Source of the DNA: Acidimicrobiia bacterium
GTDB lineage: Bacteria > Actinomycetota > Acidimicrobiia > Spongiisociales > ZC4RG35
Length of the DNA: 64,000 nt
Assembly (NCBI GenBank): GCA_965248705.1
Contig: CBDFJY010000002.1
Span: 1,177,365-1,241,364, forward strand
Reading direction: 5' to 3'
The number at the start of each line of letters is the position of its first letter. Positions within the stretch are counted from its first letter, which is position 1. Positions 59,961 to 64,000 of this stretch are shown piece after piece. Position numbers and translations under genes: made by a program. Under the pieces are notes generated by a model. The model did no database searches and was not told the origin of the DNA. It saw only the letters and a list, made by a program, of their open reading frames with translations.

Positions 59961-60212
59961 GTCTACGAAACCGACGCGCCGGCCTTACCACCGCCCATGC
60001 CTGGCGAGGAAGAACCGCTTCGGAACCCCGGCTAACACGGAAGAAGATGAACTGCTCTAAACTCCCGAATACAACGATGACGGCCAACCCTTCACCCCCG
60101 GCGAGGAGGCCGAGAATACCCGACACCACGACCACGACTACTATTACGACTACTCCCGGGGAGGGCGGGACATCACAGGAACCAACCAGGACAGCGAAGG
60201 TACCCGCGTTGA

Positions 60213-62339
60213 TTGAGCCAATCCCCCGTGGATAGCCTAAAAAGGAGCTCGAAGGTGGTGATGGGGGCGGTGTTGGGGCTGATTGTTTCTGTTGCTGGAG
60301 CGTCTTATGTGATGGCGTCGGATCATGATTGGGGATCGGGTAGGACGTTTTCTGAGTGCAATTCGGCGGGTCTTACCAATTACGGTCCTAAGACAGGTCA
60401 GAAGTGGATCAATGGTGTCCATAGGAATCTGTATCACTGCACGGCGCCTAGTACTACCGATCGGCAGCCTGATTGGGGGTCGGGTAGGACGTTTTCTGAG
60501 TGCGGGTGGGCGGGTCTTACCAATTACGGTCCTAAGACAGGTCAGAAGTGGCTCGATGGTGTCTATAGGAATCTGTATCACTGCACGGCGCCTAGTACCG
60601 ATCCGCAGCCTGATTGGGGGTCGGGTAGGACGTTTTCTGAGTGCGGGTCGGCGGGTCTAACGAATTACGGTCCTAGGACAGGTCAGAAGTGGATAGGGAA
60701 CTTCTACGCCGATCTGTATCACTGCCAAGCGCCTGTAGTCAGGACTTCCCCGGGGCCTGCCGGAGCTGGCGCCTTGCGTCCGGACAACTATTCCAGCCCT
60801 GGTATCCGTGTTACCGAGCTATCTGTGCATGGTCGGCCTGCGATGGCCCATATTTTCCAACCGCGTTCTGACCTTCCGGCTTGGAACGCAGCTCTTCCAT
60901 TAGATTGGGCTGCGGATCCGTTCGAGGATCGCAATTGGCAATTTCATCTCCATTCCTGGCGGAACATGGACTACTGGCTATATGCCTACCAGGATGGTGA
61001 TGCGGCGGTCCTTCAAGGCGCTGTGGCAATAGCTCTCGACTGGGGGCGGTTCCACTTCGACGAGAACCACAAGAGTGCATTCCAATGGTATGACATGGCT
61101 ACGGGGATTCGGGCGTCCCGCCTCGCTTTTCTGCTCGACAAGGCCTTCACCGGCGAATTGCATGTTGATGACACCGACCTCACAGCTCTCATGCGCTTGG
61201 CGGAGCTTCACGTCCAAAAGCTTCTGCAACCATGGTTTCTCTCATCCGGCAATCATGGTCTCTTTCAGCTCGTAGGGCTCAATGCGCTGTGCGAAGTTAT
61301 TAGTTGGCGAAGCGTTTGCAAGGTTGCCCGATCCTATGCCAGCCAGTCCTTCGCCAAGCTGGTGAAAGAATGGTTCACGGTCGAGGGCGTCCATCGTGAG
61401 AACTCGCCTGCCTATCAGGGGTTCATTTTGGCTGCTCTCCGGAGGCTTCGCGTTGCCGAGCGAATTCAGCAACCCGAAGTGCGTACCATTGTTGAGACCG
61501 CGACCACCGTGGCGCCCTGGCTCACCTATCCCAACGGAAGATGGGTTCCAGTTGGAGACAGCGCTGGGAGCGGACCACGACTCTCCGAACCGGTCGAGCC
61601 ATCCTGTCTTGATGGAAATAAAGGTTGTTGGGCGGTTCGAGACCTCACTAGATCAGGGTATGGGATCATTCGTTCTCTGCCTGAGGCTGGCGATGAGTCC
61701 AGCCTTTTGTTCATAAGCGCGATGGGAAGGTTGACAGGGCATAAGCACGCCGATGATCTCGGGTTCGTGCTGATGGAGGGGGGCCGTGAAATCTTTGTCG
61801 ACAGTGGTAAGTACGGTTATAACTCCGACCGGATGCGGCGTTATGTCACCAGCGCTCGGGCTCACAACGTTCCGAGTCTCCTAGGCCGGCCTATCGGACC
61901 TGAGGAACTCGATCCCGACGAAACGCACCTGCAACCCATCAGAACGACCGACTCTGGTTTTGTTGTGGAGGGATTCGCCGATCGCCCCAAACTGTTTCGC
62001 CACGAGAGAGTCTTTTCCTACATGCCCGGATCTTCTCTTACTATCAGGGACCGTTTCTACAACAGAACGAGTTCTCGCTGGCAGTCCAACCTTCATCTGG
62101 CTCCCGACCTCGATCCGGTGATCACCACCTCGGGTTTCGTTGTTCAGGTTGGTGAATTCTTGGTGCAAGCGGACTTCGAGGGAGATGGGTGTGATATAGA
62201 CATGGCGCGTGGTGAGACCGCGCCCTATCAGGGCTGGGTTTCCATCGGGTATTTGGAGATGACACCCGCCACCGTTGTGAGAGCGTCCTGTCCGGCCGAT
62301 CTGGTCGAAACTTCGTGGCGCATCACGTTTCAGCGGTAG
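60213..62339 (+). CDS. Secreted heparinase II/III-family protein with three N-terminal repeats
   Basis: Signal-like N-terminus; NHGLFQ, HRENSPAY, GHKHAD, VDSGKYGY, ARAHN. Confidence 0.82.
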   Translation: MSQSPVDSLKRSSKVVMGAVLGLIVSVAGASYVMASDHDWGSGRTFSECNSAGLTNYGPKTGQKWINGVHRNLYHCTAPSTTDRQPDWGSGRTFSECGWAGLTNYGPKTGQKWLDGVYRNLYHCTAPSTDPQPDWGSGRTFSECGSAGLTNYGPRTGQKWIGNFYADLYHCQAPVVRTSPGPAGAGALRPDNYSSPGIRVTELSVHGRPAMAHIFQPRSDLPAWNAALPLDWAADPFEDRNWQFHLHSWRNMDYWLYAYQDGDAAVLQGAVAIALDWGRFHFDENHKSAFQWYDMATGIRASRLAFLLDKAFTGELHVDDTDLTALMRLAELHVQKLLQPWFLSSGNHGLFQLVGLNALCEVISWRSVCKVARSYASQSFAKLVKEWFTVEGVHRENSPAYQGFILAALRRLRVAERIQQPEVRTIVETATTVAPWLTYPNGRWVPVGDSAGSGPRLSEPVEPSCLDGNKGCWAVRDLTRSGYGIIRSLPEAGDESSLLFISAMGRLTGHKHADDLGFVLMEGGREIFVDSGKYGYNSDRMRRYVTSARAHNVPSLLGRPIGPEELDPDETHLQPIRTTDSGFVVEGFADRPKLFRHERVFSYMPGSSLTIRDRFYNRTSSRWQSNLHLAPDLDPVITTSGFVVQVGEFLVQADFEGDGCDIDMARGETAPYQGWVSIGYLEMTPATVVRASCPADLVETSWRITFQR
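60327..60734 (+). repeat. Three coding tandem repeats (periods 144 and 141 bp)
   Basis: Units start at 60327, 60471 and 60612: DWGSGRTFSECxxAGLTNYGPxTGQKW...LYHCxAP. Confidence 0.95.
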
Positions 62340-62361
62340 GTGGTGCGGCGGCGATTTACGA

Positions 62362-63792
62362 TCAGCGTATCGGGGCTACCCGAAAAACAGCGTCGGCGGT
62401 CGTCACATACATCTCTCCCTGGGTGTCCGTCCCGAAGGAGAGCACCCGCTTCTGAGCTTCTACCTGTTCGGTCCAGTCTTGAAGATCTACAGCCAGTGAT
62501 CCGTTCCAGCGGAAGCTGCGGAGAAAACCGCCGCACGCGTCGGAGTAGAAATAGTGCCCGCTGAGCTCGGGAATCGCTTGCCCTCTGTACACGATCCCGC
62601 CTATAACAGCGCAGACCTCGGGACTGTGGGGAAGGGCCAGGGCGGGTGGAGTGAAGCCACTGGTATCGCATGTTTCCGGGTTCTCCTTGCAGGCCGTACC
62701 TTCGTTGAAAGGACCCCATTGGTGTCCTTCCAGAACCGACCATCCGAAGTTGGCGCCGGGTGTGTCGAGCGAAGTTATATCGATCTCTTCGAAGGAAGCA
62801 GCTCCGACATCGCCTATGAAGATCAGATTTGTCATCGGGTCTATCCAAAACCGCCAAGGGTTGCGAATCCCGTAAAGGTATACCTCCGGAGCATCGGGGC
62901 TCAAGGGAGGATGGTCGGTCGGGATGCTGTAGGGGTCTCCTCCGTCAACATCGATGCGGAGGATCGAGCCAAAAAAGGCAGTGGGGTCCTGTCCGTTGTA
63001 GTTGAGTCCGTCGTCCCCGACCCCGATGTACAAATAGCCGTCGGGGCCGAATGACATCATTCCCCCCTTGTGGAAATCACTTCGAGTCGGGATTTTCAAT
63101 ATGGTTTTGGCGCTGGAGGGGATCGCCCTCCTCAACGTGTCATCAAGCCGGTATTCAGCGACAATGATGTCAAATTCGAGATCGGTGTAGTAAAGGAACA
63201 TTCGCTGCGGATCCATGGGGTGGAGGGCTATACCCAGCATTCCTGTTTCCGATCCGATCGCAATGGAGTCTCTCAAATCCAGCACCGGCGGGTTGGAGAA
63301 GGTGTCTTCCTCCACTAACCAAACTCTTCCCTCGCGGGTGATCATGTAGTTGTAATGACCACCGGGGCGCCCCACAATTTGTAGAGGCATGGCGAATTCG
63401 TCACCCAAGATCGTGCGGACATCGGTGAAGACAGGTTCGTAGCGCAGACCGCGCAACGGTGACAGATTGGTGGTGGTCGCCGAGGTCTGGGAGGTGATCG
63501 TCCCGGGATTTGTGGCGGGTGTTGGAAGGGAATCGGTGGTTGGCTGTGGCGTGGCACCGGTGGGTGTGGTTGGAGCTGTGCAATGATACAGATCAGCGTA
63601 GAAGTCCCCGATCCACTTCTGACCGGTGCGAAGACCATAATCAGTCAAACCCTGATCCCCGCACTCATCAAACGTCATGCCCGATCCCCAATCGGTGGTG
63701 GATGTCGAAGAAACTGTGTCCTCACCTCCCCCGCAGGCGGCTGCAAGGAGGACCAAAGCAATCCAAATCGTTACGCAAGGTCGACTGGTCAT
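62362..63792 (-). CDS. PQQ-dependent sugar dehydrogenase (GSDH beta-propeller) lipoprotein
   Basis: LAAAC lipobox; GMLGIALHP, FGPDGYLYIGVGD, GIRNPWR, SFGTD. Confidence 0.88.
   Translation of the reverse strand: MTSRPCVTIWIALVLLAAACGGGEDTVSSTSTTDWGSGMTFDECGDQGLTDYGLRTGQKWIGDFYADLYHCTAPTTPTGATPQPTTDSLPTPATNPGTITSQTSATTTNLSPLRGLRYEPVFTDVRTILGDEFAMPLQIVGRPGGHYNYMITREGRVWLVEEDTFSNPPVLDLRDSIAIGSETGMLGIALHPMDPQRMFLYYTDLEFDIIVAEYRLDDTLRRAIPSSAKTILKIPTRSDFHKGGMMSFGPDGYLYIGVGDDGLNYNGQDPTAFFGSILRIDVDGGDPYSIPTDHPPLSPDAPEVYLYGIRNPWRFWIDPMTNLIFIGDVGAASFEEIDITSLDTPGANFGWSVLEGHQWGPFNEGTACKENPETCDTSGFTPPALALPHSPEVCAVIGGIVYRGQAIPELSGHYFYSDACGGFLRSFRWNGSLAVDLQDWTEQVEAQKRVLSFGTDTQGEMYVTTADAVFRVAPIR
63571..63693 (-). 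repeat. Fourth copy of the DWGSG...LYHC module, inside the PQQ dehydrogenase
   Basis: DWGSGMTFDECGDQGLTDYGLRTGQKWIGDFYADLYHCTAP. Confidence 0.92.
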
Positions 63793-63802
63793 CGGTGTCC
63801 CC

Positions 63803-64000
63803 TCAGCTATTGGCCAGCGCCAAGGATAGTTCGGCGCCCACCTTGGCATTGTGCTCGATGAGTGCGGTGTTGGCGGCCAGAGAGGCCCCGTGGGTGTGTT
63901 CGAAGATAGCTTGCAGCAGGAATGGTGTGGCGTCCTTGCCGGCGATGCCCCGTCGCTCCAACTCGGCCAGAGCGTATCTCACGGCTTCCCGGGTGATTTG
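63803..64000 (-). CDS. psuG: Pseudouridine-5'-phosphate glycosidase C-terminus (cut by window edge)
   Basis: Manual translation: GIAGKDATPFLL...HTHGASLAANTALIEHNAKVGAELS. Confidence 0.85.
   Translation of the reverse strand, partial: QITREAVRYALAELERRGIAGKDATPFLLQAIFEHTHGASLAANTALIEHNAKVGAELSLALANS

Follow-up and report, generated by a model that had tools for sequence, protein, structure and literature searches.

The stretch analysed here, referred to as the window, comprises 64,000 nucleotides of an Acidimicrobiia bacterium (GCA_965248705.1, contig CBDFJY010000002.1, positions 1,177,365 to 1,241,364 of the forward strand). Towards its end lie two convergent open reading frames (ORFs), whose stop codons are 22 nt apart and whose products are exported: a heparinase II/III-like protein with the predicted fold of polysaccharide lyase family 12 (PL12), and a lipoprotein related to the soluble pyrroloquinoline quinone (PQQ) glucose/sorbosone dehydrogenases (GSDH type). 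Both carry, near their N-termini, copies of a 41-residue module with two cysteines, and our analysis identifies this module as a new, previously undescribed family of accessory domains, predicted to fold autonomously and restricted to one genus. The features of the locus are as follows.

60213..62339, + strand: heparinase II/III-like gene, 708 aa, TTG start; product exported, PL12-like fold
60213..60317, + strand: probable Sec signal peptide of the lyase-like protein, read by eye (K/R-rich n-region, hydrophobic core, ...SYVMA followed by SDH)
60327..60449, + strand: module copy 1, residues 39-79 of the lyase-like ORF
60471..60593, + strand: module copy 2, residues 87-127 of the lyase-like ORF
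60612..60734, + strand: module copy 3, residues 134-174 of the lyase-like ORF
60735..62336, + strand: catalytic part of the lyase-like protein, alpha/alpha toroid plus beta-sandwich
62362..63849, - strand: GSDH-type lipoprotein gene (soluble PQQ glucose/sorbosone dehydrogenase-like), 495-aa ORF
63733..63747, - strand: lipobox-like LAAAC (...LLAAAC followed by GGG), residues 35-39 of the dehydrogenase ORF, read by eye
63571..63693, - strand: module copy of the dehydrogenase, residues 53-93 of the ORF, 13 residues past the lipobox Cys
63457..63570, - strand: Thr/Pro/Ser-rich linker from module to beta-propeller, ~38 aa
62365..63456, - strand: GSDH beta-propeller catalytic part (Pfam PF07995)

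Signal peptides and lipoboxes were assigned by eye. With the cleavage point of the lyase-like protein so placed, module copy 1 begins 4 residues past it, and the N-terminus is without a lipobox Cys, a layout found also in the orthologues P0008, P0011, P0029 and P0035. For the dehydrogenase, comparison with orthologues points to the ATG at 63792 (M20 of the ORF) as the likely true start. The public gene call for the lyase-like ORF (P0023, 457 aa) begins at Met252 and so leaves out window positions 60213-60968, and with them the signal peptide and all three modules; late-start calls of this kind may be the reason that the module has gone uncatalogued. Several homologues of 457-459 aa resemble such calls. 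The locus is AT-richer than the genome as a whole, with a guanine-plus-cytosine (GC) content of 0.565-0.573 between window positions 60000 and 64000 as opposed to 0.615 for the source genome (2.58 Mb, 61.5% GC). The stretch was found in four sequencing runs, all from one study, and no RNA run was listed among them.

The module follows the pattern DWGSG..C..GLT.YG..TGQKW..LY.C.AP. A preliminary description of this DNA had reported the motif three times in the heparinase-like protein and once in the dehydrogenase, and a scan with a hidden Markov model (HMM) places all four copies at exactly those limits. When the four-copy HMM was run against 41,596 stop-to-stop frames of the whole 2.58-Mb genome, the copies were recovered with independent E-values (i-E) of 2e-29 to 3e-28, and the next best match reached only E 4.3; the repeat is therefore far beyond chance. 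The copies are 66-88% identical to copy 1, with 25 of 41 columns invariant, and 69-94% identical at the DNA level, where codon differences are both synonymous and non-synonymous. The C-terminal half of copy 3 is closest to the dehydrogenase copy. Tandem Repeats Finder resolves the array into 2.6 copies of a 144-nt period with 92% matches. The same description had placed a Thr/Pro linker after each copy, which is right for the dehydrogenase (~38 aa) but not for the lyase-like protein of the window, whose linkers are short (STTDRQP, STDPQP and VVRTSPGPAGAG); module proteins of congeners have long Thr runs in this role.

Conservation is strong across a wider set. Among 30 copies from the window and nine congeners, 14 columns are invariant (W2, G3, G5, C11, G15, T17, Y19, G20, T23, G24, W27, L35, Y36 and C38), and among 71 copies W2, G3, G5, C11, T17, G20, G24 and W27 remain so, with Lys or Arg at position 22 in 64 copies and at position 26 in 68. 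As the two Cys are invariant and the proteins are exported, Cys11 and Cys38 probably form a disulfide. Mean identity is 0.81 between copies within one protein, 0.81 between dehydrogenase copies across genomes, and ~0.63 between protein families, a pattern which indicates that the module descended together with each host gene and underwent local multiplication.

No described family accounts for the module. Searches of whole proteins against Pfam and NCBIfam (E up to 1) gave only the catalytic domains above cut-off and nothing on the module, and searches of Pfam with 30 single modules (E up to 10) gave only chance-level matches, the best being DEFB136 (6 of 30, E 0.046) and SEC-C (5 of 30, E 0.028), with Urocanase_N (E 0.054) and DUF5659 appearing once each. 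A profile search of PDB sequences produced one match, at E 0.32 and over just 11 residues. AlphaFold2, given a single module and the 30-copy alignment, predicts a confident structure (predicted local distance difference test, pLDDT, 95.2; predicted template modelling score, pTM, 0.66; 39 of 41 residues at 90 or above), consisting of two short strands (2-3 and 6-7), a helix (8-13) that holds Cys11, a hairpin (22-28/31-36), and then Cys38. Foldseek, which is weak for domains as small as this one, found no PDB structure at E up to 0.001 (best E 2.2, query TM-score, TMq, 0.30) and no similar fold in BFVD (best E 0.6), and a search of the ESM Atlas with the module yielded no usable match. The preliminary description had recognised no named family and had proposed a folding check; with no match to a described family in the libraries searched, a stable predicted fold and further copies in congeners, its suspicion of a new domain is borne out.

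One Pfam entry, PF27503.1, is precomputed on the metzincin-like protein P0007; none of the 14 module-bearing lyase homologues has it, nor do eight of the nine proteins recovered by a word-indexed search of sequence clusters. Its absence from the module-bearing lyases makes it unlikely to be the module. Literature searches found no paper mentioning PF27503, no work related to the motif DWGSG, and no paper joining Acidimicrobiia, sponge and heparinase; the available passages of PMC11706023 contain no mention of heparin, glycosaminoglycan, S-layer, carbohydrate-binding or metalloprotease. An origin from urocanase was considered and rejected, as the single Urocanase_N match among 30 modules, even at E up to 10, amounts to chance-level likeness. 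Positions 100-127 of Urocanase_N do recur as a sub-threshold match on multi-copy proteins (22.2 bits for P0003, cut-off 23.2), and residues 117-160 of the genome's own urocanase hutU (G000:C2:1601761-1603455, - strand) resemble the module (EWG..F..LE.LGLTMYGQMTAGSWI...TYEC.A), a likeness of 11.5 bits and genome-wide E 0.29 that we judge to be at chance level. PDB urocanases are absent from the module profile search at E up to 10.

The module is very narrowly distributed, being confined to one genus of uncultured bacteria. An HMM search of all frames of its own genome finds four copies, all at this locus; an extra candidate at C2:598101-598301 (E 0.11) was rejected as an Arg-rich junk frame. 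Ten of 17 genomes of the genus, our own included, carry the module. It is present in none of 20 genomes from other genera of the family, and 24 genomes from other families of the order gave one match (G044), which is false, so that no true match exists in the 44 genomes outside the genus. The G044 match is a 584-aa frame without the Cys, taken for a urocanase from its sequence alone, and a further locus from a search of genome contigs for related loci (L001) was discarded as a spurious 15-residue match, likewise without the Cys. At database scale, HMMER searches of 1.84 billion representative proteins (E up to 1e-3) returned 16 proteins, namely 14 true ones and two low-complexity repeat proteins, and the word-indexed search, which covered 5.8 billion clusters, returned nine.

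Three main kinds of exported protein act as hosts. Heparinase-like proteins carry one to three copies after a non-lipoprotein signal peptide; GSDH lipoproteins carry one copy, 10-17 residues past the lipobox Cys, and have a long Thr/Pro linker after it; and metzincin-like proteins of ~1000 aa carry one, three or four copies with long Thr runs. A further host, P0014, has two copies followed by a 330-aa part without a Pfam match. The module is thus common to unrelated exported enzymes, as originally proposed for the two proteins of the window, and congeners add further exported hosts; the accompanying idea of a mobile domain holds to the extent that mobility is confined to the one genus.

The window lyase-like protein matches Hepar_II_III_N (36.2 bits, cut-off 22, E 5.9e-09) and Hepar_II_III_C (65.4 bits, cut-off 24, E 7.4e-18), and the AlphaFold2 model of its catalytic part (pLDDT 92.7) finds heparinase III/HepC (PL12; 4mmi, 5jmd, 4fnv) as its best structural matches in Foldseek (E ~2e-20, TM-score 0.6-0.69), followed by other glycosaminoglycan lyases and by PL15, PL17 and PL33 lyases, alginate lyases included. 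Sequence identity to these structures is just 10-16%, a phmmer search of the PDB with the catalytic part found no relative, and the invariant His, Tyr and Asn are present. Given a predicted fold nearest to those of heparinase III and further glycosaminoglycan or alginate lyases, the substrate would be some uronate-containing polysaccharide. The dehydrogenase matches GSDH (PF07995) at 112.7 bits (cut-off 25, E 3e-32); in the PDB it is related to soluble PQQ sugar dehydrogenases and to HHIP (2ism, 3a9g, 2g8s, 1c9u), and its score against TIGR03606 is 47.8 bits, below the cut-off of 434.55. The metzincin-like hosts have a C-terminal HExxHxxGxxH motif, weak fn3 matches, sub-threshold matches to Peptidase_M10 and Reprolysin_3, and repeated, unnamed Cys-containing domains. 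A search for metzincin homologues beyond the genus returned only P0007 itself and P0140, which also has three modules. Between the modules and the protease part, P0003, P0004, P0005, P0007, P0012 and P0020 contain three to eight copies of an unnamed ~100-aa domain with the pattern ...FTE.E.YY.C...W.V.TG..D.EC....FYVRV.S...WS.W and no Pfam match.

Comparison among congeners shows that the module is accessory and swappable. Full-length orthologues of the dehydrogenase, 72-100% identical and counting the window's own copy, occur in 10 of the 17 genomes from this genus, always with a lipobox of the form ..A[AVS][AGS]C, and in nine of the ten the module follows the lipobox. The tenth, in G004, has a catalytic part that is 77% identical and retains lipobox and linker without the module, of which G004 has no match at all. 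A 45-48% identical paralogue of the dehydrogenase is present in all 17 genomes, and in our own genome it is a lipoprotein with a ~110-aa linker and no module. The lyase-like gene is found in six of the 17 genomes, each time with the module and with an adjoining dehydrogenase gene. N-termini were compared among the best 120 of 282 lyase-like homologues, with lipoboxes called by a heuristic: 14 have the module, 51 others are lipobox-like, 29 have neither, and 26 are too short to judge. In P0036, a 64% identical orthologue, S-layer homology (SLH) repeats occupy the same N-terminal place, and in P0071 and P0097 the N-terminus bears a different domain, of ~280 aa. Copy number also varies, from one on all dehydrogenases to one, two or three on lyases and one, three or four on metzincins. 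It is the lipobox or SLH repeats at the module's place in close orthologues from other lineages, together with the module-less G004 dehydrogenase, that lead to this conclusion. The lyase-like gene itself was likely acquired horizontally, judging from its sequence relationships: in a sample of 300 genomes of the class, homologues occur in only two other genomes, at 32-33% identity, many homologues exist in the protein database at 43-63% identity, and the locus is AT-rich.

Several further observations concern relatives and neighbours of these genes. In G004, the gene adjoining the module-less dehydrogenase (L024:6684-9926, + strand) encodes an exported protein of 1080 aa that combines SWM repeats with an arylsulfotransferase domain and an SLH repeat. 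In G009, some 3.5 kb upstream of the lyase gene, there is a fragment of an ORF with the module, next to a frame of 953 aa that likewise bears the module and was taken from its size alone to be a metzincin-like gene. The lyase-like gene of G005 is split (L026:4346-6061 and following), with the match breaking at query residue 430-435 into two frames, the first of which starts inside a module; either the gene is broken or the assembly is at fault. Beside the dehydrogenase gene of G015, a 177-aa frame (L028:4916-5449, - strand) contains just the C-terminal half of one module (...SRTGQKWIGGAIKDLYQCTAP; E 9.4e-10) and is probably the relic of a module-bearing gene. In our own genome, an ORF that runs from window position 63702 past the end at 64000 (L022:66-815, + strand) holds ...SCSRLHQFAAHEAGHVF... 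in its last 20 residues, where a single BLASTP comparison aligns 17 residues with the HExxH region of the module-bearing metzincin P0004 (E 6e-4). The remainder resembles out-of-frame sequence and has no Pfam match, and the ORF may be the relic of a metzincin gene that adjoined the dehydrogenase. Just beyond the window lie two paralogous lipobox proteins, L022:944-2077 (377 aa) and L022:2164-3174 (336 aa), both on the + strand, which have YLEEVIPPCTP.EGSDRDPC in common; neither matches a Pfam family, and in the first an (ETQEVV)n repeat follows the lipobox.

What might such a module do? The reading that we tentatively prefer, at somewhat less than an even chance, is that of a non-catalytic module, akin to a carbohydrate-binding module (CBM), which would keep a small set of co-located exported enzymes on one common polymer. 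The set would consist of the PL12-like uronate-polysaccharide lyase, the PQQ sugar dehydrogenase and, in congeners, the metzincin-like proteases, each presenting one to four modules at its mature N-terminus on flexible Ser/Thr/Pro linkers, and tandem copies would add avidity. The preferred ligand would be an anionic glycan or matrix outside the cell, serving the lyase as its substrate as well. A tandem of N-terminal modules on linkers is the layout that CBMs usually show. Small CBMs such as CBM1, CBM5/12, CBM10, CBM18/hevein and CBM50/LysM offer the nearest likeness of this kind, being 35-60 aa long, aromatic-rich, in some cases disulfide-stabilised, and found in tandem on Ser/Thr/Pro linkers in polysaccharide-active enzymes, as which the PL12-like lyase would count here. 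By the CAZy definition, a CBM is a discrete fold within a carbohydrate-active enzyme, with demonstrated carbohydrate binding; a discrete fold in a host of PL12-like fold is what the models predict for the module (pLDDT 95.2). In the model, the conserved aromatics W27, Y32 and Y36 and the basic positions 22 and 26 all lie on the hairpin, an arrangement that would suit an anionic glycan. The genome has 44 SLH matches, none on the same protein as the module, and yielded no sortase; with another domain thus in general use for wall anchoring, the module-bearing enzymes would seem to have a special target in common. Both the binding and the identity of the ligand are what we infer from these features.

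A number of points weigh against this CBM-like reading, and several favour instead a module that binds the cell's own wall or envelope polymer and retains its enzymes there, in functional terms a counterpart of SLH repeats or a lipid anchor. No likeness to a known CBM family was found in Pfam, PDB sequences or Foldseek searches of the PDB, and unlike small CBMs the module occurs also on a dehydrogenase and on proteases. Only if the target were a composite matrix would these enzymes and the lyase have a substrate in common, and a module common to enzymes with different substrates is what retention would predict. On the dehydrogenase the module sits 10-17 residues from the lipid anchor, close to the membrane and far from the catalytic domain, a poor position for reaching an external substrate. 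Mean net charge varies strongly with the host (metzincins +2.6, lyases +0.7, dehydrogenases -4.6), so the module surfaces are not uniform. The module stands where relatives of the lyase carry a surface anchor, which cell-surface retention fits at least as well: among the best 120 of 282 homologues, none of the 14 module-bearing proteins has a lipobox as opposed to 51 of the others, and P0036, with its SLH repeats at that place, is within the identity range of module-bearing orthologues. No other recognisable anchor is present in the module-bearing lyase and metzincin proteins that were scanned or read by eye, and the lack of any sortase match in the genome fits retention as well. SLH repeats (PF00395) themselves resemble the module in size (~40-45 aa), in occurring at the N-termini of exported enzymes as one to three tandem copies, and as non-catalytic polymer tethers. 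They differ in that P0001, P0002 and the modules have no PF00395 match, although SLH is readily detected in the genome and in P0036, and in that the two invariant Cys and the beta-hairpin are features of the module. Against retention, SLH is widely used in this genome, yet the module is on two proteins here and on three to four protein families in the genus, when a general anchor would be expected on more; the dehydrogenase, moreover, is already lipid-anchored, and its G004 orthologue manages without the module. We regard envelope retention as possible but on the doubtful side. The comparative evidence points both ways, and computation cannot separate it from CBM-like targeting.

Other explanations, including those below, are together about as likely as envelope retention, and each by itself is improbable. 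The module could be stabilising or protecting its hosts from proteases as an N-terminal cap, or it could be a spacer, an export aid or a young domain without a fixed function. The restriction to one genus, the module-less G004 dehydrogenase and the recent duplicates within proteins (mean identity 0.81) would all agree with a role of this sort, which we nonetheless consider improbable given the strong conservation of surface-type residues across three protein families (~63% mean identity between families), the repeated multiplication of copies and the confidently predicted fold. Slightly more remote still is docking or self-association, in which lyase, dehydrogenase and protease would meet in one complex or on a scaffold or S-layer protein. 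A small, apparently disulfide-stapled domain on flexible linkers, common to a small, co-located enzyme set, could serve such an end, but no candidate scaffold is known, and one to four tandem copies on the enzymes themselves are unlike dockerins. Finally, the ~40-aa units with Q-K/R-W and one Cys pair, exactly three of them in the window lyase, recall the QxW repeats of ricin-type beta-trefoil lectins (CBM13), of which the three copies would then be subdomains and not independent modules. That idea is contradicted by the existence of single-copy proteins (nine dehydrogenase orthologues, P0018, P0029 and P0035) and by the lone unit, which is predicted to fold at pLDDT 95 and with a helix; copy number runs from one to four, linkers between copies reach ~20 Thr/Pro residues, and the whole protein has no Ricin_B_lectin match in Pfam at E up to 1. 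We consider it highly improbable.

Returning to the CBM-like reading, it is tempting to carry it one step further. Perhaps the module was born within this one genus, with a fold of its own, as a new CBM family for anionic, glycosaminoglycan-like glycans of a host matrix, and aims a horizontally acquired heparinase-like lyase, matrixin-like proteases and the dehydrogenase at the extracellular matrix of that host. So specific a scenario is unlikely in its entirety.

The reach of these findings is limited to one uncultured genus, with a function argued by analogy. Within it, the module is a compact predicted fold that matches no solved structure, and if binding were confirmed it would represent a new family of accessory modules, a candidate for a new CBM family or a new type of wall anchor. 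It would also provide a clean natural example of anchor swapping, in which one enzyme is found with a lipobox, with SLH repeats or with the new module, and a 41-residue unit with a single disulfide could possibly be of use as a small affinity tag directed at its ligand. Confined as it is to one genus, the module offers a tractable case of the recent origin of a domain, and of its spread by tandem duplication and by shuffling between neighbouring genes.

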